A stretch of DNA of 64,000 nucleotides. Origin: an uncultured Chloroflexia bacterium (GTDB lineage Bacteria > Chloroflexota > Limnocylindria > Limnocylindrales > CSP1-4). The notes below the pieces were generated by a model. The model was not told where the DNA came from, searched no databases, and saw only the letters and a program-made list of their open reading frames with translations. Where the stretch lies: the NCBI GenBank assembly GCA_963835335.1, contig CAWIFB010000006.1:72084-136083 (forward strand). The letters are read 5' to 3'. Below, in pieces: positions 1,476 to 33,959 of this stretch. Made by a program: the position numbers and the translations under genes. Each line of letters begins with the position of its first letter. Positions within the stretch are counted from its first letter, which is position 1.

Positions 1476-1480
1476 TCCCG

Positions 1481-2407: not shown

Positions 2408-2419
2408 AGGGGGACGGAC

Positions 2420-6136: not shown

Positions 6137-6316
6137 TTGCGCCCGCGAAACGGGCCCGGGACGGCCTCGGCGGGCCTCGTGCAGGCCGCCACGGCGGGCT
6201 GATCTTCCTCCCTTGGCCCGCGCTAGACTCGCCGGGACGCCCGGTGTTCGCGTGCGGGAGCGCCGATCCTGGCTCCGCTCGAAGGGAGAGGGCTCATCCT
6301 CGAAAACAGGACGAGT

Positions 6317-6865
6317 GTGATCAGGATGGGGATCGTCGGCCTGGCGATCGGGATCCTCGTTCCCACCACGCTCGCGCTCATCTCGGGAGCGCCGCTCCTC
6401 GACACCCGCGCGCCGCTCGGCACGCCATCCGCTGCCGGCAGCGCCGCGGGCCAGGCGTCCTCGGCCCCGCCCGCCACCCCGATTCCAACCGTGACGTCGA
6501 AGGCGACGGCGAGACCGACGGCGAGCCCGAGGCCGACCAGGGACACCACCAGGCCGACGATCGTGAGCCGCGCTCCGGGCCGCAACGCGACCGGTGTCTC
6601 CGGTGGCAGCACCATCCGGATCCGCTTCTCGGAGCCGGTCAGGGGGGTGTCGGGCAGCTCGGTCCGGCTGGTCAATGTGTCGGGAGGCTGGGTGGTCCGC
6701 TCGACCGTGCGCTACAACGCGAGCACGAGGACCGCAACGCTCGATCCGGCGCTGAACATGTACCCGAGCACGCAGTACCGGGTCACGATCCTGGCCGGGA
6801 TCACGGACGCGGCGGGGAATCGGCTGGCGCCGACGTCATGGACGTTCACGGTGGCGCGGGGCTGA
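6317..6865 (+). CDS. Membrane-anchored or secreted SbsA-type Ig-like (Big_5) domain protein
   Basis: N-terminal hydrophobic helix, Pro/Thr/Ala linker, then IRIRFSEPVRGVSGSSVRLVN...ATLDPALNMYPSTQYRVTILAGITDAAGNRL. The start could be GTG 6317 or ATG 6326. Confidence 0.7.
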   Translation: MIRMGIVGLAIGILVPTTLALISGAPLLDTRAPLGTPSAAGSAAGQASSAPPATPIPTVTSKATARPTASPRPTRDTTRPTIVSRAPGRNATGVSGGSTIRIRFSEPVRGVSGSSVRLVNVSGGWVVRSTVRYNASTRTATLDPALNMYPSTQYRVTILAGITDAAGNRLAPTSWTFTVARG

Positions 6866-6947
6866 CGCCCCGCCATGACCCGGCGGCACTGCAACGTCGG
6901 CGCCCGGTGGTCCCTGCGGCGGCGCGATGCCCGGCGCAGGCCGTTCC

Positions 6948-7343
6948 TCAGCCCCGGCCAGCGTCGAGGGATTCGCGCATCATCGCCAGCGACGGGTCCG
7001 GTCCCTTGAACCCGACCAGGTACTCGAGGCGGATCGGTGCGAAGCTCTCGTAGAACACCACGTCCTCGTCGCCCAGCTGGCGAAACGCGTGGACCCAGTT
7101 CGACGGGATGACCAGCAGCGAGCCCGGCCCGACCTCGGACTCCTCGTCGCCGACCCTGGCCCACAGCCGGCCTCGCTCGACGAGCATGATCTGCTCGGCC
7201 TCGTGGTGGTGGTCCGGGATCACGACACCGCCGCGGTACACGATCCGGGTCAGCATGGTCTTCTCGCCCGACACGGCCTGGCGGTAGACGCCGGGGATGT
7301 ACTCGACGGTCGGGAACTCGTCCCACGTCGTGATCTGGCTCAT
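6948..7343 (-). CDS. Cupin domain protein
   Basis: ATG 7343 is preceded by GGAGA. Cupin motifs PDHHHEAEQIMLVERG and GSLLVIPSNWVHAF. It is the last gene of the Mo-hydroxylase operon. Confidence 0.8.
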   Translation of the reverse strand: MSQITTWDEFPTVEYIPGVYRQAVSGEKTMLTRIVYRGGVVIPDHHHEAEQIMLVERGRLWARVGDEESEVGPGSLLVIPSNWVHAFRQLGDEDVVFYESFAPIRLEYLVGFKGPDPSLAMMRESLDAGRG

Positions 7344-7368
7344 CGCATCTCCATGTTGGGCGCCCGGG

Positions 7369-8379
7369 TCAGGACGCGGCGTGCTCCCTGGCCTCGAGGC
7401 CGCGCAGGATCTTCTCCGGCGTGACCGGCAGCTCGTCGATCCTGACCCCGGTGGCGTGATAGATCGCATTGACGATCGCCGGGATCGGCGAGTTCGCCGT
7501 CATCTCCCCGATGCCCTTGACCCCGTACGGTCCGTTCGAGGACGGCATCTCGAGCACCACGGACTCGATCTCCGGCACCTCCATCGCGCCGGGCATCAGG
7601 TACGTGCTGAAGTCGCGCGCCGCATGCTCGGGGCTCGGGTAGTAGGGCTGGGTCGTCTCGAACAGGGCGTGCGACATGCCCATCCACGCGCCCCCGCTGA
7701 TCTGCGCCTGGACGAGCGCGGGGTTCACCTGCCGGCCGACCTCGTAGGCGCTCCGGATGCTCAGCACGGTGACCATCCCGGTGTCGGTGTCCACCTCGAC
7801 CTCGGCCACGGTGCACGCATGCGCCTCGGTGGAGTCCGGGTCCATCGCGCCCGTCTCCGGATCCACGGTGCTCTTCGCCTTCATGTAGCTGCCGCGACCC
7901 GCGATCGTGCGGCCGTACTTGAACTGGGCGAGCGACGCGATGTCCGCCACCTTGACGGCGCGCGCGGGCGCGCCGCGGACCATCACGTTCCCGTGGCCGT
8001 CGATCTCGAGGTCGTCGACCGCCGCCTCGAGCTCCTCGGCGGCCACCTCGAGCAGCGAGCGCCGGGCCTCGATGGCGGCCGCGATCACGGCGTTGCCGAC
8101 CCGGTGCGTGGCGCGGCTGGCGAACGTGCCCATGTCGTGGGGGCCGGTGTCCGTGTCCGCGGTGTCGATCACGATCTGGTCGAACTCGACCCCCAGCGCC
8201 TCCGCGGCGATCTGCGAGATGACGGTCCGCAGGCCCTGGCCGAGGTCGGTCGCGGACAGCGACACGACGAACGATCCGCTGGTCGTGGCATGGATCAGGG
8301 CCTGAGACGGATCGCCGCCGAGGTTCATGCCGGTCGGGTAGTTGACGGCGGCGATGCCGGTGCCGCGGAGCTTGGCCAT
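7369..8379 (-). CDS. Molybdopterin-dependent hydroxylase, C-terminal half of the large (MoCo) subunit
   Basis: ATG 8379 shares its A with the TGA of the upstream half (TGATG). GIAAVNYPTGMN...GQGLRTVISQIAAE...GIGEMTANSPIPAIVNAIYHATG is the xanthine-DH/aldehyde-oxidase family C-terminal region. Confidence 0.85.
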   Translation of the reverse strand: MAKLRGTGIAAVNYPTGMNLGGDPSQALIHATTSGSFVVSLSATDLGQGLRTVISQIAAEALGVEFDQIVIDTADTDTGPHDMGTFASRATHRVGNAVIAAAIEARRSLLEVAAEELEAAVDDLEIDGHGNVMVRGAPARAVKVADIASLAQFKYGRTIAGRGSYMKAKSTVDPETGAMDPDSTEAHACTVAEVEVDTDTGMVTVLSIRSAYEVGRQVNPALVQAQISGGAWMGMSHALFETTQPYYPSPEHAARDFSTYLMPGAMEVPEIESVVLEMPSSNGPYGVKGIGEMTANSPIPAIVNAIYHATGVRIDELPVTPEKILRGLEAREHAAS

Positions 8380-10226: not shown

Positions 10227-11078
10227 TCAGCGGCCCTCTCCCGGCGCGCCCTGCGCCAGCTGTACCAGCGCCCGCGCGACCACGTACGCGGTCATCCGGC
10301 GCCGGTACCAGTCCGAGGCGATCCCGTCGGTGAACGGCTCTGACTCCTCGGCAGCCGCCGACGCCGCGGCCACGATCGCGTCGGGATCCAGGCTCGTTCC
10401 AGTCAGCAGCCGCTCGGCCGCATGGGCGCGGATCGGGTGCGGTCCGACGGCGCCCAGCGCGATCCGCGTCCCCGTGACCAGGCCGGCGTCCCAGGTGGTG
10501 TGGACCGCCACCGTCACCACGGCGGGCGTGTTCGCCAGCCTGCGACCGAGCTTGATGTATGCCGTCCGGCCACGGGGGATCGGCACGTCGATGGCGACCA
10601 GGAGCTCGTCCGGCGCGAGCGCCGTGGTCATGAACCCGGTGAACAGGTCCGCCAGCGGGAGCACCCGATCGCCGCGCGTGCTCGCGAGCGTCACGCTCGC
10701 ATCGAGGGCGAGCAGCGCAACCGCGACATCGCCGCCCGGCGGTGGCGTGAACAGGTTGCCGCCGACGGTTGCCATGTTGCGAACCGCCCAGGCCCCCGTG
10801 CTGCGGGCGGCGTCCTGGAGCATCGGGACATCCTGCACATCGAGGAGCCGGGTCAACGTCGTCGTCGCCCCGATCCGCACCGTGTCTCCCGTCGCCTCGA
10901 TCCCGTCGAGGCCCGCGAGCCGCAGCCCCATCACCGTCTCGGGGAGCGACACGCCGTCGTTGATCAGCGGCATCGCGACGGTGCCGCCGGCGATGACCAG
11001 CAGCTCCGGCCCGTGCCGGTCGAGCTGGTCGAGCGCCTCGGGCAGCGTGCGCGGGAGGAGGTAGCTCCGAACGGTCAC
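10227..11078 (-). CDS. FAD-binding medium subunit of the Mo hydroxylase (CoxM/CutM-like)
   Basis: LLVIAGGTVAMPLINDG, AVRNMATVGGNL, and a C-terminal CO_deh_flav_C-like part. ATGA overlap with the upstream gene. Confidence 0.9.
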   Translation of the reverse strand: MTVRSYLLPRTLPEALDQLDRHGPELLVIAGGTVAMPLINDGVSLPETVMGLRLAGLDGIEATGDTVRIGATTTLTRLLDVQDVPMLQDAARSTGAWAVRNMATVGGNLFTPPPGGDVAVALLALDASVTLASTRGDRVLPLADLFTGFMTTALAPDELLVAIDVPIPRGRTAYIKLGRRLANTPAVVTVAVHTTWDAGLVTGTRIALGAVGPHPIRAHAAERLLTGTSLDPDAIVAAASAAAEESEPFTDGIASDWYRRRMTAYVVARALVQLAQGAPGEGR

Positions 11079-12518: not shown

Positions 12519-12807
12519 ATGATCGAGCGACACCTCACGTTCACCGTGGATCCGGGCCAGGCCGAGGCGTTCGAGCGGTTCATGACTGGCGAATATGGTC
12601 CGGCGATGGCGAGGTCGCCGGGCTTCGTGCGGCTCGACCTGCTGCGCGCAGCGGACGACCGGAGCCGCTACCTGCTGGCGTTCCGGTTCAGCGACGCCGA
12701 CAGCGCGGCTGCATGGCGCACGTCGGAGGTCCACCAGGCGCTCCAGCCCGCGCTCCAGGCGCTTCACGCGGGGCATGACGGTCCAGGGGTACGACGTCAT
12801 CGCCTGA
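12519..12807 (+). pseudogene. Antibiotic-biosynthesis-monooxygenase (ABM) domain protein with an apparent 1-nt frameshift
   Basis: GGAGG RBS plus ATG 12519. The ABM-like body runs to ...ALQPALQALHAG. The expected C-terminus MTVQGYDVIA* is in the next frame (ORF 12595..12807). Removing one G from the GGGG run at 12770-12773 restores it. As written, the ORF runs on to 12959 with Arg-rich sequence. Confidence 0.7.
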
Positions 12808-14262
12808 CCCGCCGTGGCGACGGCGGGGACCGCTCGCCCTGGTGTACCCGCCGGCGACCTCGACGACCGCCCAGGTCCGGCCGCCATCGCGCGTCATCAA
12901 CAGCTGGCTTGCGCCACCGGTCGGGTGGCCGATCGCGACGCCCTGCGCGTTGGTCGTGAAGCCGAGCTCGGAGAATGTGCCGGTCCCAGCGAGCGTGGCG
13001 ACCGTCGTCCACGACGACGCCCCGTTGAACCTGCCGATCAATGCGGTCGTGCCGTCCGCCTGCGTGCCCGCCGCAACGATCGTGGGCTGGCTGGGAGCCG
13101 TCGTGACCCCCGAGAGCGCCGTGATCGGGAGGGTGCCGGCCTGCTCCGTGAACGTGGCGCCCCCGTCAGCCGACGTGAACAGGTGGACGCCCTCCGGCGT
13201 CGACCACAGCCCGATGTCGCACGCGGCAACCAGGCTCGAGGCGCTCGAGGCGGCAAGCCACCCGGGTCCGGCGGTACCGAGGCACGGCGGCTGCCAGGGC
13301 TGCCAGGCGCCGTCGACCAGGCGGGCGCCACCGACGACGTCGCGATTGAGCTGGACCAGCCAGCCTGCCGTCCCGTGGAGCACGATCTGGGTCGCGGGCA
13401 CCGGTCCCGCGCCGATCGGCACCGTGGTGGAGGAGAGCTGCAGTGCGTCGCCGGTCGTCGGCCCCGACGCAATCCGGATCAGCGGATCGCCACCGGACCA
13501 GAACGCCACGTGGACCGTGCCCGCCGCCGCCTCGAGGGCCATCACCTGCGGCGTGCCGCCGCCGGGAAGGGCCTCGCGGTGCCACGTGTCGCCGCCGTCG
13601 TGGGTTGCCCACAGGTCCGGCCCGAAGGCCCAGCCATCGAGCGCGCTGGCGAACCGCAGGCCGCGAACGCCGCTGGTCGCGGCCGCTCCGGCCACCACCT
13701 GCGTGTCGGGGGCCGGGATCCGCGTCCAGGTGAGGCCGCCGTCGGTCGTCGTGGCGATCACGGCGCAGGGTGAGCCGTCACACGTCGCGCTCCCCAGGAC
13801 CCAGCCTCGCGACGCCGAGACGAACGTGACCGACACGGGCTCGAAGTCGGCCGGGACCGCGTCGGCGGTGCCGCCCGATGCCGCGGGCGATGGCGTGACC
13901 AGCACCGGGTTGCTGGGTGCCGGGGTGACGGGCGTGGCCGGTGGCGCCGACGCGACAGGGGTCCCGCTCGCCTCGGGCGATGTCGTCGCGGTGCCCGTCA
14001 GCGGTTGGCGCAGCAGCGAGCCGCTCGCAACGGCGACGACGACCACGGCGGCCAGCGCCACGCCCAGCGGCGTGATGATGCGCATCGCCGGAGCGATCCG
14101 CGCCCACAGCCCTGCGGGCCCGGTGGCCGGCTGCCCGATCTCTGCCCGGGAGCGCGAGATGCGCGCGACGAGTCGCTCCGGTGCGGGATCGGACGCTTCC
14201 GCGTCCAGCGCGGCGCGGATATCGCGCTCGAAGGGATCGCGGTCGGGCGGGTTCGTCGTCAT
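12688..14262 (-). CDS. Putative anti-sigma factor: N-terminal cytoplasmic segment, one TM helix, extracytoplasmic BNR/Asp-box beta-propeller
   Basis: ATG 14262 overlaps the sigma stop (ATGA). TM helix IITPLGVALAAVVVVAVA. Repeated Asp-box-like motifs TDGGLTWTR, HDGGDTWHR, SADGGATF, TRDGGRTWA. The last ~55 aa are Arg/Gly-rich and overlap the ABM gene, so the 3' end is uncertain. Confidence 0.75.
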   Translation of the reverse strand: MTTNPPDRDPFERDIRAALDAEASDPAPERLVARISRSRAEIGQPATGPAGLWARIAPAMRIITPLGVALAAVVVVAVASGSLLRQPLTGTATTSPEASGTPVASAPPATPVTPAPSNPVLVTPSPAASGGTADAVPADFEPVSVTFVSASRGWVLGSATCDGSPCAVIATTTDGGLTWTRIPAPDTQVVAGAAATSGVRGLRFASALDGWAFGPDLWATHDGGDTWHREALPGGGTPQVMALEAAAGTVHVAFWSGGDPLIRIASGPTTGDALQLSSTTVPIGAGPVPATQIVLHGTAGWLVQLNRDVVGGARLVDGAWQPWQPPCLGTAGPGWLAASSASSLVAACDIGLWSTPEGVHLFTSADGGATFTEQAGTLPITALSGVTTAPSQPTIVAAGTQADGTTALIGRFNGASSWTTVATLAGTGTFSELGFTTNAQGVAIGHPTGGASQLLMTRDGGRTWAVVEVAGGYTRASGPRRRHGGSGDDVVPLDRHAPREAPGARAGAPGGPPTCAMQPRCRRR

Positions 14263-14840
14263 CGGAGTGTGCTCCTGTGGTCCGTGGCCTCGACGCTCTC
14301 GCGGAGGTGACGCAGCGCGTAATGGAGTCGGGATTTCACGGTGCCCGGGCGGGCGCCCGTTCGCTCGGCGATCTGGTCGACGGTCAGGTCCGCCTGGTAT
14401 CGGAGCGCGATCACCTCGCGATGCTCGGGCCCGAGATGCCGGAGCGCGGCGCGGATGGCGTCGGACGCACCGACGAGCTCGCCCGGGTCCGGACCACCGT
14501 GACGTTCGAGCGAGCCGACCGGGACGGTCTCGATCGAGATGGGCAGGCGCCTGCGCGATCGGAGCCGGTCGCGGCAGGCATTGACGAGGATCCGGCCGAA
14601 CCACGCCTCGAACCGGTCCGGATCGCGCAGCTGGTCGAACCGGCGCCAGGCCGAGATCACGGCATCGTGGGTCGCATCCTCCGCCTCGCTCGCATCGAGC
14701 AGGATGATCCGCGCCACGCGGTAGGCGTGGTCGAGCGCCCGCCGGTCGAGCAGCGTGTCAAACGTCCGGGAGCGACGTACATCCGCCGGCTCGGGCAGGT
14801 CCATGCCACTCACGATAGGGGTCAGCCGCGCACCCGTCAT
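14259..14840 (-). CDS. ECF (group 4) sigma-70 factor
   Basis: Region 2 is DATHDAVISAWRRFDQLRDPDRFEAWFGRILVNACRD. Region 4 is REVIALRYQADLTVDQIAERTGARPGTVKSRLHYA. The start could be ATG 14840 or ATG 14804. Confidence 0.85.
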   Translation of the reverse strand: MTGARLTPIVSGMDLPEPADVRRSRTFDTLLDRRALDHAYRVARIILLDASEAEDATHDAVISAWRRFDQLRDPDRFEAWFGRILVNACRDRLRSRRRLPISIETVPVGSLERHGGPDPGELVGASDAIRAALRHLGPEHREVIALRYQADLTVDQIAERTGARPGTVKSRLHYALRHLRESVEATDHRSTLR

Positions 14841-14848
14841 ATTCACCT

Positions 14849-14876
14849 GACGATCCGGCGGGCGTGAAACGTTCAC
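14849..14876 (-). promoter_or_regulatory. Candidate ECF-type promoter and inverted repeat upstream of the sigma gene
   Basis: The minus strand reads GGTGAAC-N18-CGTC-aggtgaat-ATG, which would suggest a leaderless transcript. The same site holds the inverted repeat GTGAA-acg-TTCAC (14864-14876). The spacer is 1-2 nt longer than classic ECF promoters. Confidence 0.25.
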
Positions 14877-14920
14877 CTGCGGCGACCGTGTCGGGCGCTC
14901 AGCGGCGCGGGCGAGACGGC

Positions 14921-16067
14921 TCAGGCGGCGGGCACCTCGACGGCGACCTCCGATGCTCCACCCGTGGATCCACGACGGACCCACCAGCTGGACTCGAGCC
15001 GCACCGTGTACCGCGACAGGTAGCTGGTCAGGACCACGGCGGCCGCCATCGCCAGCAGCACCGGTCCGAGCTCGAGCGCGCGGAAGCCGACCAGCCCGGC
15101 GCCCCAGCCGACGATCACCCAGTGCGTGAAGTACATCGCGATGACCCGGTGGCTCCAGCCGTAGACGATGCCCAGGTGCCGGTCCACGCGCTGATGCCGG
15201 GTCACCCAGTCGCACAGGGCAAGCCAGAGCAGGATGATGCCGAAGATCGGGACCGCGAACGAGAGCGGCTGGCGCCAGTAGGTGTAGACGTCGAACCCGG
15301 GGCGCTGGATGAGGAGCAGGACGCCGCCGATCACGAGCAGCACCAGCCCGATCCGGGCGCCTTGGCGGAACACGCCGCTCCGGTCGCGGCTCCGGGCGAT
15401 GACGTCACCGAACACCGCGCCGGCGAGCGCATACGCGAGCCACGGCACCACCGCGTAGTAGACGTTGGGCGCGCCGCCGATGAACGGGGTCAGCGGGCCG
15501 TCGAGGATCGGCGTGCCGAACGTGGCGCCCTTGACGAACGGTGCCACCAGCACGAGCGCGCCCGCGAGGACGAGCCAGGTCCAGCCGGGCCGTGATCTCA
15601 CGCGGAGCACGGCGATCACCACCAGCGACAGGCCGACGACGTGGTGGAGGTCGACCGTCGTCGCGAGCCACCACTGCGTGTACGGCGCCACCTGGTCGGC
15701 GGTGATGACGCCGGTCGCCTCACCCAGCGTCGCCGGGATCACGCCCCGCAGGAAGTTGAGGACGTAGCCCAGGAACACCAGCCACAGCCCGCGGGCCACC
15801 AGCGGGCCGGCTCGGCGCCCGGGCGGCGGCGCCGAGCGAGGCGCCCATGAGGAACACGAACACGGGTGCCGCCGTCGGGCCGGCGGCGTAGCTGATCGCC
15901 TCGCCGATCGGCGTCGTCCAGGTGCCGGGCACCCCCCAGTGCCACAGGATGTGCACCAGGATCATGAACAGCACGGCCAGCCCGGCCGCCAGGTCGAAGG
16001 CCCGGACCCGCTCGCGGGCGACGATCCCCGTGACGGCGTTCAGCTCGACCGGCTGGGACGTCTCCAT
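14921..16067 (-). pseudogene. DUF1624 / heparan-alpha-glucosaminide N-acetyltransferase-like membrane acyltransferase with an apparent frameshift
   Basis: The N-part (frame of ORF 15720..16274) reads ARERVRAFDLAAGLAVLFMILVHILWHWG...PVFVFLMGASLG. The C-part (ORF 14921..15799) reads ARGLWLVFLGYVLNFLRG and continues through eight more TM helices. The frames switch around 15810-15825 (gcgcccgggcgg). The start could be ATG 16067 or 16145. Confidence 0.7.
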
Positions 16068-16219: not shown

Positions 16220-16791
16220 CTACGCGCCGGCGACCGTCAGCTGCACTGCCGGGAAGCCGGCCGGCGTGTTGCACATGACTTGATAGCCGCCTACCTTGTG
16301 GTCAACGTTGTCGCTGCCGTGCTGCACACTCCTGACCGTGTACAGGAGCGTGCCGGCTCCCTGGAGAGCGGCTGGCCGTCTGCTGATACACCCAGTCCGG
16401 GATGTCGGTCGTCACGTCACCGCCGTCGATTGCGAGAGCAGTCGAGAAGATCCTGGTAGGTCGTCCCCGGCTTGACACCGTAGATCGAGGAGATCGAGCC
16501 CGCGACTTCTTGATCGGGCACGTACTCGAACCGCAGCATCGTCCCATCCGGGATCACGGTCGGACCAACGTAGGTGCAGGTCTCGCCGTCGAACGTGACC
16601 TTGACGCTCAAGCCCGGCGTCGTCGCCGTCGGTGCGGGTGACGCCGTGGGCGCGGGTGTCGCGGCCGTCGCTGGCGTCGGCTGCGGCGTGGGCTCGATGC
16701 TCGGTGCTCCGCTGGGCGCTACTGATGTGCCCGACGAGCAGGCGGCCAGCATGACCGCGAGCAGGCCGGTCACGAGATGCCTCGTCCGCAT
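16220..16791 (-). pseudogene. Lipoprotein (hypothetical) that needs two frame corrections
   Basis: ATG 16791. Lipobox LLAVMLAACSS, then a Pro/Thr/Ala linker. Protein-like sequence continues in three successive frames: ...KPGTTYQDLLD / ALAIDGGDVTTDIPDWVYQQ / GAGTLLYTVRSVQHGSDNVDHKVGGYQVMCNTPAGFPAVQLTVAGA*. The shifts lie near 16440-16450 and 16362-16378, with stop TAG at 16220-16222. Confidence 0.55.
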
Positions 16792-16927
16792 TATGTGACC
16801 CCTTTCCGCCTCGCTACCCGGTCCACCACTGGCCGGATCAGCGGCGCCACGATGGGCCCCGCGCCTGAGCGCCGGATTAGCGGTCGGCGAGAGATCGATG
16901 AGCAGCCTCGTTGCGTGGCACGCTGGA

Positions 16928-19900
16928 TCAAGGAAGCGCCTCGAGACGGATCCCTTCCAGCAGATCGATCTCGCTGGCAATGGCAACCTCCGGGGAGCCT
17001 GATGGAATCCCGGCGACGCGCATGGCCGATTCCGGGAACGCGATCACGCCCAGTGCCCGTGGCATCCGGTCAGACGCGTCAACCAGGAATGTGCCTGCCG
17101 CCAGCGCCGATTGCAGGAGGCCGGCCATGTCCCGCTCGGTGTCGGTTCGCGTCGCCACGGCACCCGGGGACGCGAGCGGGACCAGCCCACTTCCCGAATC
17201 CTCGCTGATCAGCCGGCCCGCGAACTCCGTGCCGAGCAGGTACTGCACGAAGGACCTGACCTCGGGCCGGTCACGAAGCACGACGAGCGTGTACACACGC
17301 CCACGCAGCTCGTTCGCACCTCCGGCGCGGACTGGGAGACGGACCGGGGTAAGGTCGTCGCGGATGCCTTCTTCCCACGTCGCCCGCTGATCGCCGCTCG
17401 CGTGGATCAGCCAGCACTCCGGCAGCTCGCCCGAGCCCATCTGGAGTGCCGCCCACGCCGCCGGCGTCCGAATGGCCGTCTCAGGGCCGCCGAGGACAGC
17501 GCCAGTCTGGCGGATCAGCGCGTGATAGCGGCGAAATGCAGACCCGATGGCAAGGCTGAAGCCGGTTCGCCCGGCCGCCCAGGAGTCGAATCCGGGCGCC
17601 GTCAGTACATCGAGCACGAGGTCCTCGATCAGGTCGGCGCCATAGGCCCCGTCATGCTCACCCCCAAGGAGGCCGAGACACCACGGCGCGCGACCATCCT
17701 GGATCATTCGCTCGACGAGCTGCTCCAGTGCCTCCCAGGTCGTCGGTGGCTCGTAGCCCGCGGCGGCGAACGCGTCGGCCGGGTACCACAGCAGACCGGA
17801 GACCGTCGCCGCGACCGGGGCACCGACGAGGCGCGCGGCCGTGCCGTCCGAAGCGCCGGCCGACGGCTGGACCCGGCCGAGATCGGCCAGCGGGCCCGCC
17901 TCGAGCGTCGCGAGGTCGGCCGGCGACAGGACCTCGTCCAGCGACAGAAGCAGGCCCGCACGAGCCAGGTCAGCGACGTCCCCCGAGCGAGCAAGGATGG
18001 CAACGTCTGCCTGCTCGAGCCCGGCTCGAGGATCTCCGGTGCCGTCGTCATTCGTGATGGAGATGGCACCGCCCCTGGTCGCATAGTCGGCCAACGCCCC
18101 GGCAAGATCGGCGGGCAGTTGTGAGACGACCCGCACGCCCACACCGCCGATGTTCTGGGCGACGAGATCGGTCATCGCCACCACGCCCGTGGCGGTCATG
18201 ACCCGAAGCTCCGCGTCAAACGAGCGTCGATCCGCGGCCGGACATGCCGGCTGGTGCAGGTAGGTGCGGCATTCGTCGACGGTGAGCGACCGGCCGACCG
18301 AGGTCGCGGCGAGCTCGATCAGGTCGCGGGCCGGCAGCAGATAGACGCCGCGGGCACCGTTGGGGGGCGGCGCGAGTCGCACCCCAACGGGGACGTCGCC
18401 CGACGGGTACGGGACCCGCGCCCGTTGAACGGCCCAGTGCAGCGCATCGAGCGCCTCCTCCGTGATCCACCCCCGATCGGCCGTCGCCCGCGCCGCCTCG
18501 ACGGCCAGCAGCAGGGCCAGCGTCGGATCGGTGTCGAGACGTCCGTTCGCGGCAACCGCCAGCTCGCGCGCCATGGCGATCGCTCGATCCTCGCGGGCGC
18601 CCTCGGCCTGCCGCCAGACGACGGCGAGCAACCCCGAGACCCCGATGATGCCCGCGAGGAGCACCGCCATGAGCGCCCGGAGCCGCGTCGACGCCCGGCG
18701 CTCGAGCCGGCGCTCCTGGTCGCGGCGATCGCGCTCGGCGGACTCGATCCGTCGGCGTTCGACCACGCTTGCTTCGAGCAGCTCGCGCTCAAGGCCGTCG
18801 AGGCGGATGTCGGTGGTGGCGCTCCAGGTCTCGAACAGATCGAGACGGCTGCCGGAGAGCAGGAAGCCGGGATCTCGATCCGCGGTTGCCCACTCGGTGG
18901 CCAGGGCATTCAGCCGCCCCTCCATCCAGAGGCCCTCCTCGGCCTCGTGGATCCAGCCCGCAAGTCGCGGCCAGTGCGTCAGCAGCGCTTCGTGTGCCGG
19001 CTCGACTGTCGCCTGGCTGGTGCGTGGATCTCGATCGAAGGCCACCAATCGCCATCGTCCGAAGGCTTCGAGCACGGTGTCGATGCGCTCCTGCGTTGCC
19101 TCGATCGAGCGCAGGTCGTCCACCACCACCCGGCGGGCGGCCACGGTCCGTCCTTCGCCCACCGCGACCATGCGCAGGAACAGTTGGCGGGCGACGTCGC
19201 GGGACAGTTGGTCGAGCGACGCGAACACCGCCTCCGCACGACGTCCGACGGCGCCCGCGACCCCTCCGATCGCCGCATAGGACTCGCGACTGAGCCGCTG
19301 CCCGTCCGCTCGCTCGAACAGCTCGGTGAGGGCGAACTGGAGGAGCGGGAGCGCCCCGGGTCGGTTGACGACGTCCGCCTCGAGGTCTGCTGCCAGCCCC
19401 GGCTCGAGCTCGACCCCGACGGCGGCGGCCGGCCGTGCGATCGCCCGCTCGAGCTCGTCGCGGGTCAGTGGGCTCATGACCTCGATGCCGTCCCGGACCA
19501 GCGTTCCAAGCTCGGCGCTGAGCAACGGCCGATCGAACCAATCCGCTCGCAGGGACGAGACGACGACCGGTCGTGGCCCAGGCCCCGTCAGGGCGGCGGC
19601 GATGCCGCCCAGGAACCTGGATGGTCCGGCGGGGTCCGTCGCGAGCGCGAACAGCTCCTCGAGCTGGTCGATGACGAGGAGCAGCCGGCGCGGGTCGGCG
19701 GCAGCGGCCCGTGAGAGTGTGGCTGCGACATCGATCGGCTCGGCCACCATCGCCGACCCCGGCCGCGCGTCGTTTGCGATGACATCGTCCAGCGCCCGGA
19801 GCAATGCCTCCTCCGGGCGGCTGCCAGGGAGCATCACCGCGATCCGCCACTCCTCGTGAACGGAACGTGGTGCCCGGAGCAGCGGCAGCAGCCCGGCGCG

Positions 19901-20860
19901 GATGACGCTCGACTTCCCGCTTCCGCTCGGTCCGACGAGGAGCAGCAGGCCGCCCGCCCGCGACACGACCTCGAGACGTTCGAGGAGCCTCGCCGCGAAC
20001 ATCTCGCGCCCGAAGAAGTCGCCGGCGTCCGCCTCACCAAATGGCCGCAGGCCCTTGTAGGGATTGCGTCGCCCGGACAAGGGTCGCGTGACATCGAGCG
20101 TCGCGTCCTGGCGCAGGATCGCCAGCTCGAGCGCCTGGAGCTCGGCGGAAGGGTCGATGCCCAGCTCGTCAGCGAGGAGGCGCCGACCCTCCTGGTAGAC
20201 GCGCAGCGCGTCAGCCTGGCGGCCGGCGCCATACATGGCCCGCATCAACAGGGCCCGAAGGTGCTCCCGTAACGGCTCTTCGGCCACCAGGGACTCCAGC
20301 TCGCCCGCGATCTCGCGGCCACGACCGAGCGCGAGATCCGCCTCGAAGCGATCCTCGAACGCTCGCAGCCGCAGCTCGCGCAGGCGGGCGATCTCCGGCT
20401 GCAGGAACGCGAGGTCGGCCAGGTCCGCGAACGCCTCCCCGTGCCACAGCGCCAACGCGTCGCGGATCTGCCCGGCGGCGACGGCCGGTTCGCCTGCGAG
20501 GTGCTCATGACCTTCCCGCGCCAGCCGCTCGAAGTGGGCCGCATCGATCGCGTCGGGCTCGATGCGCAGGGAGTAGCCGCCGGCCTCGGTCGCGATCAGG
20601 CCCCGGGCGTTGCCGTCGTGGTTGTCGCGGGTCCCCGACTCCAGCGCCGTCCGGAGACGCGAGACGTGGAACGCGACGCTGCCGGCGCCGCTGTCCGGCG
20701 GAGAATCGCCCCACAGCGCATCCAGGATGCGCTCGGTCGAAACGGGCTGTCCGGCATGGACGACCAGCAGCGCAAGCAAGGCGCGCTGCCGCTGGGACGC
20801 GATCGCGGTCGCCCGGCCGGCATCGACGATCTCGACGCGGCCGAGGATCCGGATCTCCAT
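16928..20860 (-). CDS. SARP/AfsR-type regulator fused to a STAND P-loop NTPase, a TM helix and a C-terminal solute-binding-protein-like domain (1310 aa)
   Basis: Winged helix (aa 1-100). BTAD (ALALWHGEAFADL...LMRAMYGAGRQADALRVYQ). NPYKGLRPFGEADAGDFFGRE. Walker A GPSGSGKSS and Walker B LLLVIDQLEE. TM helix LRALMAVLLAGIIGVSGLLAVVW (aa ~727-749). The C-terminal ~400 aa resemble a sugar SBP (LWYPADAFAAAGYEPPTTWEALEQL). Confidence 0.9.
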   Translation of the reverse strand: MEIRILGRVEIVDAGRATAIASQRQRALLALLVVHAGQPVSTERILDALWGDSPPDSGAGSVAFHVSRLRTALESGTRDNHDGNARGLIATEAGGYSLRIEPDAIDAAHFERLAREGHEHLAGEPAVAAGQIRDALALWHGEAFADLADLAFLQPEIARLRELRLRAFEDRFEADLALGRGREIAGELESLVAEEPLREHLRALLMRAMYGAGRQADALRVYQEGRRLLADELGIDPSAELQALELAILRQDATLDVTRPLSGRRNPYKGLRPFGEADAGDFFGREMFAARLLERLEVVSRAGGLLLLVGPSGSGKSSVIRAGLLPLLRAPRSVHEEWRIAVMLPGSRPEEALLRALDDVIANDARPGSAMVAEPIDVAATLSRAAAADPRRLLLVIDQLEELFALATDPAGPSRFLGGIAAALTGPGPRPVVVSSLRADWFDRPLLSAELGTLVRDGIEVMSPLTRDELERAIARPAAAVGVELEPGLAADLEADVVNRPGALPLLQFALTELFERADGQRLSRESYAAIGGVAGAVGRRAEAVFASLDQLSRDVARQLFLRMVAVGEGRTVAARRVVVDDLRSIEATQERIDTVLEAFGRWRLVAFDRDPRTSQATVEPAHEALLTHWPRLAGWIHEAEEGLWMEGRLNALATEWATADRDPGFLLSGSRLDLFETWSATTDIRLDGLERELLEASVVERRRIESAERDRRDQERRLERRASTRLRALMAVLLAGIIGVSGLLAVVWRQAEGAREDRAIAMARELAVAANGRLDTDPTLALLLAVEAARATADRGWITEEALDALHWAVQRARVPYPSGDVPVGVRLAPPPNGARGVYLLPARDLIELAATSVGRSLTVDECRTYLHQPACPAADRRSFDAELRVMTATGVVAMTDLVAQNIGGVGVRVVSQLPADLAGALADYATRGGAISITNDDGTGDPRAGLEQADVAILARSGDVADLARAGLLLSLDEVLSPADLATLEAGPLADLGRVQPSAGASDGTAARLVGAPVAATVSGLLWYPADAFAAAGYEPPTTWEALEQLVERMIQDGRAPWCLGLLGGEHDGAYGADLIEDLVLDVLTAPGFDSWAAGRTGFSLAIGSAFRRYHALIRQTGAVLGGPETAIRTPAAWAALQMGSGELPECWLIHASGDQRATWEEGIRDDLTPVRLPVRAGGANELRGRVYTLVVLRDRPEVRSFVQYLLGTEFAGRLISEDSGSGLVPLASPGAVATRTDTERDMAGLLQSALAAGTFLVDASDRMPRALGVIAFPESAMRVAGIPSGSPEVAIASEIDLLEGIRLEALP

Positions 20861-21009
20861 CCGGCCCCCTTGCTACGTGGTCCGGCGGCGTCGGTGCCCG
20901 ATGCTAGGGCGCAGGAGACGCAGTGGCTACGGCCGTCCGGCCTGCCGTATCGATGCCGCGGTCGCCAATCGGGCCCGGCATCCGGCGACCCGGCCGGGCC
21001 GCCGACACG

Positions 21010-21062: not shown

Positions 21063-21485
21063 TCACGCGCCCGGAATCGCGGTGGGGTTGCCCAGCACCG
21101 GGCACCGGAAGTCGGCAGCCTCGTCGCGGACCAGGACCAGCTCATCGTTGGCGGCCCGAGCCTCGAGATCCGACCAGCTGGTCACGCGGGTCGTCGGATC
21201 GCCGTTTGTCCACGTCGCGCGATAGATGGCCCACCGGCCGCCGTGGTGGCCGATCGTGCCCGGGGCGAACTCGGCGACGCCGAACTGGCTGTCGGCCGTC
21301 GAGTTGGTGAAGATCGCGAACGGATCGGTTCCGGTGCCGTCCGGCACGTTGGCCTTGTTGCCGAACACTCGGTAGACCTGGTCGTTCGCATAGACCGCAC
21401 CGAAATCGCGGCTCGCGGATACCGGACCGGCGAACGCGGAGAGCGCGAGCAGTCCTGCGGTGATGGCAAGCATCAAGCGCTTCAT
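21063..21485 (-). CDS. Small secreted protein (hypothetical)
   Basis: Signal peptide MKRLMLAITAGLLALSAFAGPVSAS. The mature part contains VAEFAPGTIGHHGGRWAIY. No family is recognised. Confidence 0.75.
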   Translation of the reverse strand: MKRLMLAITAGLLALSAFAGPVSASRDFGAVYANDQVYRVFGNKANVPDGTGTDPFAIFTNSTADSQFGVAEFAPGTIGHHGGRWAIYRATWTNGDPTTRVTSWSDLEARAANDELVLVRDEAADFRCPVLGNPTAIPGA

Positions 21486-21760
21486 GGATCCTCCATTTCC
21501 TTGGCTACGTCGGCGAATGCCGATCCAGGAGCCGGAGTCTCGACAGGCGCGATGTCAGCTCGATGACGAACCGTGACGCGTCGGTGACAGGCGGGCTCGA
21601 TCGGCCGGGCCGCGCCCGACCTCGCGTGACTCTCCGTGTGCGTCAGGGGAGATATCAGCCTGGCGGTTCCTGACCAGGAGGAGGCGTTTCGCGCCGCAAC
21701 CCCGTGGCTGGGCGCCGGCTTGATGCGCCGGGCGAGTCGGCGCGCGGGAAAGGCGTCGGC

Positions 21761-21817
21761 GCCAACGAGACGTGCCGGCGCCAACGAGACGTGCCGGCGC
21801 CAACGAGACGTGCCGGC
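21761..21817. repeat. Perfect 19-bp tandem repeat x3 (GCCAACGAGACGTGCCGGC) plus a degenerate fourth unit
   Basis: Read directly: units at 21761-21779, 21780-21798 and 21799-21817. The repeat is intergenic and ends 12 nt from the stop of the anti-sigma/PQQ gene (21829). Confidence 0.9.
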
Positions 21818-21828
21818 GCGAACACGGA

Positions 21829-23199
21829 TTACCCCGGCGCCGTCCCCGTATTGTCGCCGGCGATGCTCTCGAGCTTGCCGAGGCTGGTGGCGACGATGAT
21901 CCTGCCGTCGACGATGGCCGGAGCCCCCGGGACACCGGTCACCGCGAAGTTCCAGATCTCGGTGTTCGTCGCGGCGTCGATGGCATGCACCTTGCCGTCG
22001 TCGCTGGTTGCGTAGAACACGCCGCCGACGTATCCACCGTCGGGCACCGACGATGACCCGATCTGCAGTGGATCTCCCCGCAGCACGCCGGTCGCCGCGT
22101 CGAGCACGTAGAGCATCCCATCGGCCCCCTCGGCAAACACCCGGCCATCGGCTACCGCGCCGATGCGCATGCTGGCGCCCGACGCTGCCTGGAACGGCGC
22201 CAGCCAGGACGGGGTACCCGTCGCCGCATCGAACGCGTACAGGTAATGGAGCGCGGCGTCGCTGGGATCAAGTCCGCCGGCGACATACACCCGTCCGCCG
22301 GCAATGGACGGGGCCGAGGTGTTCCCGGGCTCGAGCGGCTCGCGCCACAACGACCTGCCGGTCACGGCGTCGAAGGCGCCAAGGCTTGCAGCATCGGCGG
22401 ATGTCGAGCCCGCGGACCCGGCGAAGACGCGCCCGTCCGCGGTCGCCACCGCCCCGTTGATCTCGCCGGAGGTTGTCGCCGCGGGCCAGGAGAAGCCGCC
22501 AGTCGACACGTCGAACGCGTACACGCGGTTGTGGCCTCCCGCGAACCCGACGCCATCGCTGACGGCGGCCGCCGAATGCACCGCGGCGAACGTCGTGATC
22601 TTCCAGCGCTCCCGTCCGGCGTCGGCGATGTCGAGGGCATGAACGATCCAATTGTCATCGCCGAAGATGAGCAACCCATTCGAGATGGTCATCCCGCTGT
22701 TGATCGCGGCGCCCACGGACACCTCCCACAGGAGGGTGCCGGTCTGCTCCGCGAACGCTGACACGAAACCGGACTGATCGGCCACGTACACCACACCGGA
22801 AACGACCAGCGGCGACCACGGCCCAACGGGCGCCCTGAGCGTCTGGCTCCACTCGATCCGGAGCCTGCCGGCCGGTGCCGGCCCGGGCATCACCCCCGAG
22901 CGATCGGGGCTCCCGTGATAGGTCAGGACGGCGGACTGTTGGAACGGATCGTGGCGGCGCGATCCGACGAGCAGCAGCGCGCCCAGGAGCGCGAGGACCA
23001 GCAGTGCGACGACGCCCACTCGCACGAGAGGGGCGGTGGGCAGCGCCAGTCGCGTGTCGAACGCCGGACGTCCGAGCTGCGGGGTGGAGGCAATCGCCGC
23101 ATGGATGCCGGCAGCCAGGTCGGACGGGACTCGGACGCCGGCCGCGGGGGTCAGCGCGGCGCGGATCGCGTCATCGGTCAGGTGCATCGAGTTGCTCAT
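21829..23199 (-). CDS. Putative anti-sigma factor with a TM helix and an extracytoplasmic PQQ-like (BamB-type) beta-propeller
   Basis: ATG 23199 overlaps the sigma stop (ATGA). TM helix VRVGVVALLVLALLGALLLVG. Repeated G-x-VYV...G-x-L-x-A-x-D-x-x-TG-x-x-LW units (VYVADQSGFVSAFAEQTGTLLW, LYAFDAATGTPSW, KVHAIDAATNTEIW). Confidence 0.8.
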   Translation of the reverse strand: MSNSMHLTDDAIRAALTPAAGVRVPSDLAAGIHAAIASTPQLGRPAFDTRLALPTAPLVRVGVVALLVLALLGALLLVGSRRHDPFQQSAVLTYHGSPDRSGVMPGPAPAGRLRIEWSQTLRAPVGPWSPLVVSGVVYVADQSGFVSAFAEQTGTLLWEVSVGAAINSGMTISNGLLIFGDDNWIVHALDIADAGRERWKITTFAAVHSAAAVSDGVGFAGGHNRVYAFDVSTGGFSWPAATTSGEINGAVATADGRVFAGSAGSTSADAASLGAFDAVTGRSLWREPLEPGNTSAPSIAGGRVYVAGGLDPSDAALHYLYAFDAATGTPSWLAPFQAASGASMRIGAVADGRVFAEGADGMLYVLDAATGVLRGDPLQIGSSSVPDGGYVGGVFYATSDDGKVHAIDAATNTEIWNFAVTGVPGAPAIVDGRIIVATSLGKLESIAGDNTGTAPG

Positions 23200-23795
23200 C
23201 GTCGTTCGGCTTTCAGCGCGCGCTCGAGTGCGTTGCGAGCGTTGGAAAGTCTCCATTTCACTGTGCCGACCGGCGAGCCCGTTGCTCGCGCGATCTCGGC
23301 AAGCGGCGTGCCTTCCACGTAGTGGAGGACGAGCAGCGCCCGGGACGTGCCGTCGAGTCGGGCGAATGCCCGTTGGATCGCGTCACTTTCGGCGAGCGTT
23401 TCCGAATGAGCCGGGACGCTGGGCTCGATCCGCCGCCCGCGGCTTTCCGGATCCGCGTCCACCGCAAGCTCGCGGACCCGAACCCGTGAGCTGCGACGCA
23501 CGTGGCCACGCGCAGCGTTCACCAGGATCTGCGAGAGCCATGCGTCGAACCTGTCGGGGGTGCGCAGGCGAGGCAGCTCACGCCACGCGAGCACGCATGC
23601 ATCCTGGGTCGCATCACGAGCGTCGGATTCGCTGCGCGTGATCGCCACCGCCAGGCGGAACAGGCGATCGAGGCGCGGCTGGATCAGCAGGTCGAACGCA
23701 TCGCGGTCGCCCGAGGCGGCTCGCTCGATGAGCGCTCCGTCCCGATCGTCGAATATCGCCTCGAAGGTCGTGGCCACCGATCCTCCAAAGAACAT
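23196..23795 (-). CDS. ECF (group 4) sigma-70 factor
   Basis: Region 2 is DARDATQDACVLAWRELPRLRTPDRFDAWLSQILVNAAR. Region 4 is LLVLHYVEGTPLAEIARATGSPVGTVKWRLSNAR. The alternative start GTG 23777 has a GGAGGA RBS. Confidence 0.9.
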   Translation of the reverse strand: MFFGGSVATTFEAIFDDRDGALIERAASGDRDAFDLLIQPRLDRLFRLAVAITRSESDARDATQDACVLAWRELPRLRTPDRFDAWLSQILVNAARGHVRRSSRVRVRELAVDADPESRGRRIEPSVPAHSETLAESDAIQRAFARLDGTSRALLVLHYVEGTPLAEIARATGSPVGTVKWRLSNARNALERALKAERR

Positions 23796-31907: not shown

Positions 31908-32054
31908 ATGTTGTGGACCATCTTCGTCATCCTGCTCGTGCTGTGGCTGCTGGGCTTCATCGGCTCCGTCGGCGGCGCGTTCATCCACCTCCTGCTCCTC
32001 ATCGCCGCGATCGTCCTCGTGGCTCAGCTCCTGTCCGGTCGGCGAGCGGTATAG
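31908..32054 (+). CDS. lmo0937-family small membrane protein (48 aa)
   Basis: GGAGGA, then 7 nt, then ATG 31908. MLWTIFVILLVLWLLGFIGSVGGAFIHLLLLIAAIVLVAQLLSGRR. Confidence 0.8.
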   Translation: MLWTIFVILLVLWLLGFIGSVGGAFIHLLLLIAAIVLVAQLLSGRRAV

Positions 32055-32185
32055 GGACCCTGCGAGGCAACCGGAGCCGTCGCGTCGGGCGCCACGAGCT
32101 CCGGATCCAGCCCCGCAACCGGCCGGCCTTCGTGCCGGCCGGTTCTTTCCCGGCCAGCCGGCCGGCTTGAGCGGAGGCTTGTGAC

Positions 32186-32398
32186 ATGACGATGGTCGTT
32201 CGACGCTGCGCCCACTGCGGCTCCCTCGATCGGACACAGCACTGGGAGTCGCGTGACGCGGCTGCCGACCAGGGGGCCCCGGGGGCAAGCTGGGTCTGCC
32301 CGACGTGCGGCTCGTCGGATGCGGAGCTCGTCGATGACGACGCGCCGGACGAGCCGGGGATCGTGAAGCCGATCAACGCCGCGCCGGCGATGCACTGA
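32186..32398 (+). CDS. Small zinc-ribbon protein (hypothetical)
   Basis: GCGGAGG RBS. Two CxxC pairs (CAHCGS ... CPTCGS) and an acidic tail. Confidence 0.45.
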   Translation: MTMVVRRCAHCGSLDRTQHWESRDAAADQGAPGASWVCPTCGSSDAELVDDDAPDEPGIVKPINAAPAMH

Positions 32399-32494
32399 CC
32401 CTCGGACCGGCGACGCACTGGCGCTTCGGCCGGCCGGCCCACTGCCGCTTCCCCGGGCACGACGCCGTGGTGGAGCGACGCCGCGGCGGACGCC

Positions 32495-33932: not shown

Positions 33933-33959
33933 GGACGGCCGGCTCCCCGCCGGCCGTCC
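33933..33959 (-). terminator. GC hairpin downstream of the GT4 gene, candidate terminator
   Basis: Perfect 10-bp stem GGACGGCCGG / CCGGCCGTCC with a 7-nt loop, about 90 nt past the stop at 34046. There is no U tract. Confidence 0.35.

Follow-up and report, generated by a model that had tools for sequence, protein, structure and literature searches.

A predicted membrane-spanning SARP regulator joining an nSTAND1 NTPase to a solute-binding fold in uncultured Chloroflexota

The subject of this work is a gene encoding a 1310-aa protein, here called the regulator, in a 64,000-nt stretch of DNA from an uncultured Chloroflexia bacterium (assembly GCA_963835335.1, contig CAWIFB010000006.1, positions 72,084 to 136,083 of the forward strand). 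The whole stretch is referred to as the window; coordinates are positions within it, and aa numbers are residues of the product of the 1310-aa open reading frame (ORF). G+C content is about 70% throughout the region. A preliminary description, made from the sequence, had read five modules in this ORF, namely a winged helix, a BTAD domain, a P-loop STAND NTPase, a hydrophobic helix and a region resembling a family-1 sugar solute-binding protein (SBP). Pfam, the ORF list and the fold model bear out the length of the frame, the five modules and their order.

Modules and predicted topology of the regulator

The gene and its parts are the following (TM, transmembrane).

16928..20860 (-): whole regulator gene, one uninterrupted ORF of 1310 aa from ATG to stop (stop codon 16928-16930)
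20624..20797 (-): OmpR/PhoB-type winged-helix DNA-binding domain, aa 22-79 (Pfam Trans_reg_C, 40 bits, cut-off 26.2)
20114..20548 (-): BTAD domain, aa 105-249 (Pfam BTAD, 151 bits, above cut-off, profile positions 1-146 of 146)
18869..20062 (-): nSTAND1 STAND NTPase, aa 267-664 (Pfam PF20703, 343 bits, profile positions 1-378 of 379)
19907-19933 (-): Walker A, GPSGSGKSS, aa 310-318 (motif search of the translation)
19655-19684 (-): Walker B, LLLVIDQLEE, aa 393-402 (motif search of the translation)
18683..18868 (-): predicted cytoplasmic linker, aa 665-726, with 14 Lys/Arg and 14 Asp/Glu in 62 aa
18614..18682 (-): single TM helix, aa 727-749, predicted N-in/C-out
18206..18613 (-): predicted extracytoplasmic juxtamembrane alpha/beta domain, aa 750-~885 (~135 aa), from invariant columns and a confident model
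18242-18274 (-): motif ECRTYLHQPAC of the juxtamembrane domain, with the invariant Cys pair C864/C873
16931..18205 (-): complete family-1 (MalE-like) solute-binding fold, aa ~886-1310 (AlphaFold2, Foldseek and Pfam)

By their Pfam profiles the winged helix and the BTAD domain together make up a SARP module. The NTPase opens with NPYKGLRPFGEADAGDFFGRE (aa 266-286), and the patterns GPSGxGKSS and VxDQxEE are at least 90% conserved in an alignment of 46 homologues; nucleotide-dependent switching and oligomerisation of this domain are proposed. The predicted linker terminates in a highly charged helix continuous with the TM helix. The motifs quoted previously are all present, including this charged stretch (aa 702-722) and the SBP-like segment LWYPADAF... 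(aa 1024-1048); Walker A had been placed at 19910-19936 and lies 3 nt away from there.

The gene had also been called SARP/AfsR-type. The NCBIfam AfsR equivalog model aligns to aa 4-298 only, with 176 bits against a cut-off of 1430, and the matches of the BagI/FevR models are likewise confined to the N-terminal SARP part. Concerning the modules that follow the SARP part in AfsR, Pfam gave no NB-ARC match at E<=1 and no TPR match in the regulator. The name SARP is therefore correct, while AfsR-type is a mere analogy, because the NTPase is nSTAND1 and not NB-ARC, TPR repeats are lacking and the AfsR model matches only in part. As judged by these profiles, the regulator starts with a genuine SARP module but is no orthologue of AfsR, and the STAND clade of its NTPase is a different one.

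Homologues were searched for among 5.8 billion clustered proteins, giving 4451 matches at E<=1e-10; the counts of helices and flanking charges below use 120 homologues listed from this search, and those of cysteines use 112 full-length ones. The segment aa 727-749, which lies exactly where the preliminary description had put its hydrophobic helix, is the only one in the regulator with a 19-residue Kyte-Doolittle mean above 1.6 (peak 2.64), and its simple Hessa sum is -1.9. An equivalent segment of 21-23 residues of uninterrupted hydrophobic sequence is predicted in 120/120 homologues, its position and hydrophobicity being kept while its sequence varies freely. Over the 15 residues on each side of the helix the mean net charge is +3.36 in the N flank and -0.75 in the C flank, and the N flank is the more positive one in 117/120 homologues, as the positive-inside rule predicts for a cytoplasmic N-terminus. 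Cysteines follow the same division: the regulator has none in the 726 residues before the helix, predicted to be cytoplasmic, and four after it. C864, C873 and C1061 are invariant in the alignment of 46 homologues and C1149 is at least 90% conserved there. Exactly four cysteines occur after the helix in 101/112 full-length homologues and an even number in 108/112, with a density four times that of the cytoplasmic part. These independent and concordant signs predict a single-pass N-in/C-out protein with two extracytoplasmic disulfides, and in this way the flank charges and the conserved cysteines support the inside/outside arrangement proposed earlier. Having a winged helix and a hydrophobic helix in one polypeptide, the regulator is a predicted transmembrane transcription regulator.

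The part beyond the membrane was modelled with AlphaFold2 (aa 721-1310, alignment of 46 sequences), with pLDDT 90.8 and pTM 0.89. The model begins with one continuous 52-residue helix (aa 722-773) that runs from the last part of the charged helix through the TM segment into an outer stalk, and it is followed by an alpha/beta juxtamembrane domain of about 110 aa. This separate, conserved domain with an invariant Cys pair, standing between the TM helix and the SBP fold, is an addition to the preliminary description. In the model the C-terminal ~425 aa certainly form a complete two-lobed type II periplasmic-binding-protein fold, as expected from the family-1 sugar SBP assignment made before. Of the findings that would have spoken against the earlier reading, a missing TM helix and a C-terminus of some other fold, neither was obtained. 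Pfam SBP_bac_1 gives a partial match (aa 946-1094, 37.7 bits against a cut-off of 26), and the sequence-only comparison of the ectodomain with the PDB is marginal. Foldseek found 740 PDB matches of the model at E<=1e-3, the best being carbohydrate-binding proteins matched along their entire length: at the top the chitin-oligosaccharide protein 7eho, then the glucose protein 5xpj, AcbH (3oo6) and the xylobiose protein 8xba, with E about 5e-15, target-normalised TM-scores of 0.68-0.79, about 425 aligned columns and identities of 13-18%. These neighbours suggest that the ligand class is carbohydrate. Trp, Tyr, Asp, Glu and Arg residues are conserved in the alignment of the SBP fold, and their sequence positions suggest a ligand cleft. 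ABC permease or ATPase genes adjoin the regulator neither in the window, as had been noticed, nor in 12 related loci. The ectodomain is regarded as an SBP fold and not as a transporter SBP, because it is fused to the regulator.

Several of the related loci have amino-sugar genes in the neighbourhood: GH18 in L007 and L013, NAGidase with a BcrAD_BadFG kinase-like gene in L009, a HGSNAT-like acyltransferase in the window and L006, and ROK in L010. Together with the top fold match and a weak NgcE match of the regulator (NCBIfam), these neighbours give a low-confidence lead towards a chitooligosaccharide or amino-sugar ligand. The lead is not rated higher, since some of the loci are orthologous to one another and genes of this kind are frequent.

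A modular, lineage-restricted family

The top ~100 matches of the homologue search are all about 1290-1360 aa long and have the Pfam set of the regulator. Their sources are assemblies of NCBI, ENA, JGI and Logan, with contigs reaching 1.3 Mb, and their identities to the regulator range from 100% down to about 40%; the identical one (P0001 in our protein collection) lies on a 300-kb contig. An assembly fusion of separate genes, a concern raised in the preliminary description, is excluded because more than 100 independent clusters from many samples share this architecture. All members are from uncultured Chloroflexota (Limnocylindria-like) and Actinomycetota, the named ones being 'Candidatus Limnocylindrales' (Chloroflexota) or Actinomycetota. 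Annotation pipelines do pick up individual domains, and the database labels are generic, such as 'BTAD domain-containing putative transcriptional regulator', 'extracellular solute-binding protein' or 'DNA-binding SARP family transcriptional activator/ABC-type glycerol-3-phosphate transport system'. We regard the regulator, on these matches, as one member of a modest, lineage-restricted and modular family and not as a singleton.

The modular character was seen with the ectodomain as query. An exhaustive HMMER scan of aa 751-1310 against 1.84 billion representatives gave 1271 matches at E<=1e-3, mostly ordinary SBPs, and 83 representatives at E<=1e-30. In those of the 83 that also span the juxtamembrane domain, the match is at the C-terminus of proteins of about 560-1995 aa, and nSTAND1 stands directly upstream of it in 8/8 proteins sampled over the length range, the shorter of which are N-terminally truncated fragments. 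Two variants of the N-terminal output were found: SARP with a Ser/Thr kinase (P0111-P0120, L002, from an Ilumatobacteraceae metagenome-assembled genome (MAG), and L010) and a class III cyclase (P0099-P0105 and P0121/L009). These comparisons identify the nSTAND1-TM-juxtamembrane-SBP cassette as a conserved unit with an exchangeable N-terminal output (SARP, SARP plus kinase, or cyclase).

A contig scan keyed on nSTAND1 motifs confirmed at least five loci, including L001-L003. The gene of L003 (7894-12202, +), which is split by a frameshift in its MAG, encodes SARP-BTAD-nSTAND1, a hydrophobic helix, the outer helices of the regulator, WD40 propellers and a terminal motif '...ECLTYHFTDCP'. Since L003 carries both, the helix and the Cys motif (EC..Y....CP) are shared with the WD40 branch, and the range of ectodomains found on the cassette is the SBP set plus the WD40 of L003. 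If the L003 helix is a real TM segment, its WD40 propellers would be extracellular. A homology search with aa 701-890 alone gave one match, the charged helix having probably swamped the word index.

In L009 (regions 5222-7767 and 355-3613), a divergent Crp-family cNMP-binding regulator and an SBP_bac_5 gene lie immediately upstream of the cyclase variant, and an amino-sugar gene set (NAGidase, SIS and the BcrAD_BadFG kinase-like gene) is found a few kb off. This context suggests a cAMP-Crp output and gives a hint of an amino-sugar theme.

The adjoining lipoprotein gene and the predicted SARP box

Immediately downstream of the regulator, on the same strand, are a lipoprotein gene and, in the spacer before it, a predicted target site.

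16221-16791 (-): lipoprotein gene, candidate partner or target, with lipobox LAAC, a Pro/Ala/Thr-rich linker and an all-beta domain of ~120 aa
16863..16902 (-): predicted SARP box, four heptamers at an 11-bp period (CTCATCG / CTCGCCG / CTAATCC / CTCAGGC), from matrix scans
16849..16854 (-): -10-like hexamer CATCGT, 8 nt past the last heptamer and 57 nt ahead of the start codon of the lipoprotein gene, from the spacer alignment

We examined 11 SARP-type loci (the window, L001, L006-L008 and L011-L016) belonging to about six lineages. The lipoprotein gene is directly downstream of the regulator and on its strand in 11/11 of these loci, several of them orthologous, with a spacer of 88-154 bp; other flanking genes vary between loci, this gene being the one exception. 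It was not found near the cyclase (L009) or kinase loci. The lipoprotein family comprises 63 clusters and has no Pfam domain and no name. Its beta domain carries the motif VTFDGxxCxYxGP and two invariant cysteines, and its model (pLDDT 83) is weakly cupredoxin-like, the neighbours being small laccases at E about 1e-4 with a TM-score of 0.35; no conserved copper or metal ligands were seen in the family.

The window gene corresponds to the lipoprotein previously described beside the regulator, and it is interrupted by two frameshifts (~16,43x and ~16,37x), a 2-nt deletion and a 1-nt insertion in comparison with the intact orthologue of L015. The product of the gene caller is a truncated 118-aa protein (P0184). 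A HGSNAT/Acyl_transf_3-type membrane acyltransferase gene lying further downstream (14921-16040, -) is split into overlapping ORFs, 15720-16040 and 14921-15799, and is intact in L006 as a single 381-aa gene (12768-13913). Similar frameshifts are present in L001 and L003.

In SARP-dependent promoters, according to PMC10936776, direct repeats are spaced by 11 or 22 bp and 8 bp separate the 3' repeat from the -10 element. Three or four heptamers recur exactly every 11 bp in the regulator-lipoprotein spacers (CTAGCCG-N4-CTAGCCC-N4-CTAGCCG in L007 is an example), and the last heptamer stops 8 nt ahead of a -10-like hexamer (CAGGAT, CAAGGT, GAGAGT, GAGGAT, CAGGGT, GACGAT or CATCGT) with an unvarying A in second and T in sixth position. 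The arrays match the published SARP promoter geometry, and binding of the SARP module to them is predicted. In leave-one-out scans the spacer array ranked first of 32,000-40,000 positions in L007, L008, L012 and L014, with 21-28 bits against 11-14 elsewhere, and second in L011 and L013; in L001, a locus on which the matrix was not trained, the top match fell at the equivalent place in the spacer. L001, L007, L008, L012 and L014 have strong arrays; that of the window is weaker, and that of L006 scores weakly under the distant-clade matrix. No such array was found by matrix scan in the cyclase or kinase loci.

The clade of the window (window, L006, L015 and L016) has four copies of a diverged, CTC(A/G)NCG-like heptamer. 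With a matrix from six distant loci, the best of ~128,000 window positions falls in the 136-bp spacer. When L016, with a regulator 53% identical, is the only source of the matrix, 16863-16902 (-) ranks first, in register before CATCGT. Support for the window array is its position and register, which agree with those in the other SARP-type loci of the spacer alignment, not its strength. We consider the target prediction, made by matrix and alignment, strong for the family and moderate for the window.

Some observations on these loci stand apart from the above. In L013 a second strong array (5882-5910, -; 22.9 bits) precedes a divergent membrane-protein gene with repeated 'ILAGLQSEYLR.IARDWY' motifs, and the lipoprotein gene of this locus has a second, shorter paralogue in tandem (10621-11037, +). 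The lipoprotein domain is duplicated within one gene in L007 and L001. The split of the HGSNAT-like gene is another apparent frameshift within 2 kb of the lipoprotein breaks. The ~57-nt leaders of the lipoprotein genes (16792-16848, -, in the window and the equivalents in L007, L008 and L011) contain a GC-rich inverted repeat, for example CCCGGTCGAACGGAGACCGGG. A hairpin in these leaders (CCCGG...CCGGG) was considered as a feature and dropped, since six leaders compared with RNAalifold showed no consensus structure. The whole window was without a match to any Rfam family.

On the upstream side of the regulator there is one further gene that had been noticed before:

21063-21485 (-): 140-aa secreted protein without Pfam match, just upstream of the regulator

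It agrees with its earlier description as a small secreted protein. It is kept in the close relative L006 (7376-7798) and is absent from more distant loci, and for this reason it is probably outside the system. Between it and a PQQ-propeller gene lies a tandem repeat (21748-21823) with a 19-bp unit, CGGCGCCAACGAGACGTGC, in 3.5 copies with 97% matches. At 20901-20940 (-) there is a promoter-like element, CCG(A/G)A(C/T)GGCCGT with the palindromic core ACGGCCGT, followed after about 22 nt by TAG(C/G)AT, which stands about 27-40 nt before the regulator start codon. The element occurs also in L006, L007 and L011-L014, whose regulators are only about 50% identical. The 12-mer is too distant from the -10-like hexamer for a normal -35 element and may be a site for another regulator. 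Two genes for sigma factors of the extracytoplasmic function (ECF) type flank the regulator (14259-14900 and 23196-23795, within the regions 12688-14900 and 21829-23795, -). Each is followed by a gene for a large beta-propeller-type extracytoplasmic protein (BNR/Ycf48-like and PQQ_2/BamB-like) in an anti-sigma-like arrangement, which is also present in L006.

Proposed mechanism and comparison with known systems

We consider it probable that the regulator is a single-pass, ToxR-like, one-component transcription activator of the membrane, gated by its STAND domain and activating the adjoining lipoprotein gene. According to this proposal the SBP domain would close on a small ligand outside the cell, a carbohydrate or oligosaccharide being the likeliest kind, and closure would alter the packing or association of the ectodomains and of the continuous stalk-TM helix. 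In the cytoplasm the nSTAND1 domains would thereby be permitted to exchange nucleotide and to oligomerise. Next, the SARP modules would take up adjacent places along the 11-bp repeats, which overlap the -35 region, and would bring RNA polymerase to the promoter of the lipoprotein gene; like ToxR and CadC, they would do so at the membrane. Once induced, the lipoprotein would share the extracytoplasmic compartment of the sensor and so could feed back on it. For gating of a SARP domain by a STAND module, AfsR is the precedent (PMC10936776; bioRxiv 10.64898/2026.09.02.748808).

Several points weigh against this proposal. What is said here on topology, ligand binding, ATPase activity, DNA binding and the start of transcription is prediction throughout. 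The ligand class comes solely from structural neighbours that are 13-18% identical. Because several of the SARP-type loci are orthologous, the count of 11/11 overstates their independence. The -10-like hexamers were initially chosen by eye. The window array is degenerate and its scores lie within the shuffled maxima, 12.2 against 11.6+-2.2 with the six-locus matrix and 17.7 against 14.9+-1.8 with the L016 matrix, so no significance is claimed for it by score. With the lipoprotein gene frameshifted, either the local target is dead or the assembly contains indel errors; long-read indel errors are as likely as real pseudogenes, since L001 and L003 are frameshifted alike and the HGSNAT-like gene is split as well. 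Finally, characterised STAND proteins have a sensor domain that touches the NTPase directly, and we know of no precedent for STAND control through a single TM helix, which makes the coupling step the weakest link.

An alternative keeps the same topology and target and has the SBP-like ectodomain dock a protein partner, not a free small molecule. As partner one may think of the co-encoded lipoprotein, in the role of a co-receptor or feedback inhibitor like that in the ToxR/ToxS and VtrA/VtrC pairs, of a separately encoded binding protein loaded with ligand, or of a transporter. The strict co-inheritance of the lipoprotein with SARP-type members, its predicted anchoring in the compartment of the sensor and its equally small and lineage-restricted family (63 clusters) would all suit such a role, and periplasmic co-component partners are reportedly the rule for ToxR-like receptors (PMC9214523). 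We nevertheless find it unlikely: the ectodomain can work without the lipoprotein, because the cyclase and kinase variants keep it with no such gene nearby, the complete two-lobed SBP fold has conserved residues suggesting a ligand cleft, and the repeat array before the lipoprotein gene is more simply explained if this gene is the output.

Regulated proteolysis at or near the TM helix could also free a soluble SARP-nSTAND1 fragment acting like a cytoplasmic large SARP. Proteolytic activation is reportedly used by CadC (PMC11484849) and other membrane-bound transcription factors, at ~720 aa the freed fragment would be like a medium or large SARP, and the problem of controlling a STAND domain through one helix would be avoided. 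The chance of this being the mechanism seems small to us. Beside the loci no protease gene is conserved (a trypsin/PDZ gene is limited to L007 and L013, which are syntenic), the regulator showed no recognisable cleavage motif, and the continuous stalk-TM-ectodomain helix of the model suits conformational coupling.

An NLR-like conflict or immunity sensor, in which the SBP or WD40 domain would detect an invader-derived molecule, is brought to mind by the definition of nSTAND1 in predicted counter-invader systems (PMC8195603), by its presence in targets of diversity-generating retroelements (PMC10907252) and by the swappable sensor domains. It is very improbable in view of the N-terminal modules, which are signalling outputs (activator, cyclase, kinase) and not toxic effectors or effector-associated adaptor domains (EADs), of the specific local promoter target that is predicted, and of neighbourhoods that are housekeeping and variable; PADLOC matched the regulator only at the level of the P-loop (E about 5e-4), which is noise and no sign of membership in a defence system. 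It is just as hard to believe that the helix does not span the membrane and that a wholly cytoplasmic, MalT-like protein senses an intracellular metabolite, as the cytoplasmic sensor domains of characterised STAND proteins would have it, given the freely variable 21-23 uninterrupted hydrophobic residues, a 52-residue model helix hard to bury in the small juxtamembrane domain, the positive-inside bias in 117/120 homologues, four conserved cysteines all placed after the helix and, to our knowledge, the extracytoplasmic location of family-1 SBP domains.

Returning to the ligand-gated membrane activator, a wider reading can be offered, tentatively, in which an extracellular Venus-flytrap domain would control the nucleotide-dependent oligomerisation of a cytoplasmic, NLR-type STAND NTPase through one continuous stalk-TM helix. 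The nSTAND1-TM-juxtamembrane cassette would then be a general and unrecognised signalling chassis with interchangeable ectodomains (SBP, WD40) and outputs (SARP, cAMP synthesis, Ser/Thr phosphorylation), and the lipoprotein would be both output and extracellular partner.

Concerning previous knowledge, SARPs are divided into small, medium, large (NB-ARC plus TPR) and SARP-LAL classes, with no membrane-spanning, WD40 or SBP class (2024 review PMC10972967; preprint bioRxiv 2026.09.02.748808). A 2023 census of 50,302 transmembrane transcription regulators counted BTAD 213, NACHT 134, WD40 73 and SBP_bac_8 2; in the available part of its supplement, SBP_bac_1 is not among the listed domains. All four counts stand in supplementary tables only and are not discussed, so that membrane-anchored BTAD proteins appear there as unanalysed counts (PMC10269533). 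The papers that named nSTAND1 in 2021 for predicted conflict systems (PMC8195603) and placed it in retroelement targets (PMC10907252) do not mention SARP or SBP fusions. In agreement with the preliminary description, which knew of no characterised example, we found in the literature no characterised member and no description of this architecture. It is an uncharacterised architecture combining two known kinds, the SARP-STAND regulators and the ToxR-like transmembrane activators.

The regulator is of interest chiefly because it makes the control of a STAND switch across a membrane accessible to testing. Characterised STAND/NLR switches are understood to be soluble, with their sensor in contact with the NTPase, and a sensor across the membrane would be a second control route; it would also add a membrane-spanning class to the SARPs. 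For a metagenomic find it is unusually testable, as the SBP sensor is a well-behaved, confidently modelled fold suited to separate expression for ligand screening and the DNA target is predicted to the base pair beside the gene, and the cassette occurs also with cyclase and kinase outputs that are easy to assay. A ligand-gated, single-protein route from the outside to a promoter could serve as a biosensor scaffold.

AfsR and the other large SARPs of Streptomyces (SARP, NB-ARC nucleotide-binding oligomerisation domain, TPR) share with the regulator a winged helix and BTAD followed by a STAND NTPase, which gates the activator in AfsR and is proposed to do so here. Their target promoters also have repeats every 11 bp, of which the 3' one lies 8 bp from the -10 element, as in the predicted target of the regulator (PMC10936776, where MalT-type behaviour is also alluded to). 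The regulator differs in having nSTAND1 instead of NB-ARC and no TPR. Moreover, AfsR is soluble and controlled by phosphorylation and ATP, whereas the predicted TM helix of the regulator separates the switch from an extracellular SBP sensor.

ToxR and CadC activate a nearby promoter from the membrane, as is predicted for the regulator, and they have its predicted layout, in which an OmpR-family winged helix at the N-terminus is cytoplasmic, a single TM helix follows and the sensor at the C-terminus is extracytoplasmic; CadC reportedly has a functional periplasmic disulfide too (PMC3096576). In those proteins a short linker joins the DNA-binding domain to the membrane, whereas about 650 aa of BTAD and STAND NTPase are interposed in the regulator, and its sensor is an ABC-type SBP fold and not a ToxR/CadC periplasmic domain.

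The nSTAND1 NTPases of conflict systems (Kaur, Iyer, Burroughs and Aravind 2021) belong to the same Pfam family and have the same tripartite plan of N-terminal output, NTPase and C-terminal sensor. Theirs are TIR, caspase, trypsin and EAD modules combined with lectin or repeat sensors, read as immune systems, whereas in the family described here the outputs are activator, cyclase and kinase and the sensor is predicted to lie across the membrane.

MalT, the regulator of the E. coli maltose regulon, is a STAND NTPase that couples sugar sensing to oligomerisation-dependent activation, a property that the regulator would share if its ligand is a sugar. MalT is cytoplasmic, has a C-terminal LuxR-type helix-turn-helix and senses maltotriose via a helical repeat domain, with a separate ABC importer that includes MalE, whereas the regulator has a MalE-like fold built in and predicted to be outside the cell. 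An SBP-type fold as extracytoplasmic input is found also in BvgS, a sensor kinase with periplasmic Venus-flytrap/SBP domains. The same holds for SBP-dependent sensors such as CuaD with its two-component system (PMC10384115). In these systems the signal passes through a histidine-kinase phosphorelay from SBP_bac_3-type or separate SBPs, whereas the regulator fuses a family-1 SBP, via one predicted TM helix, to a STAND NTPase and a DNA-binding output.

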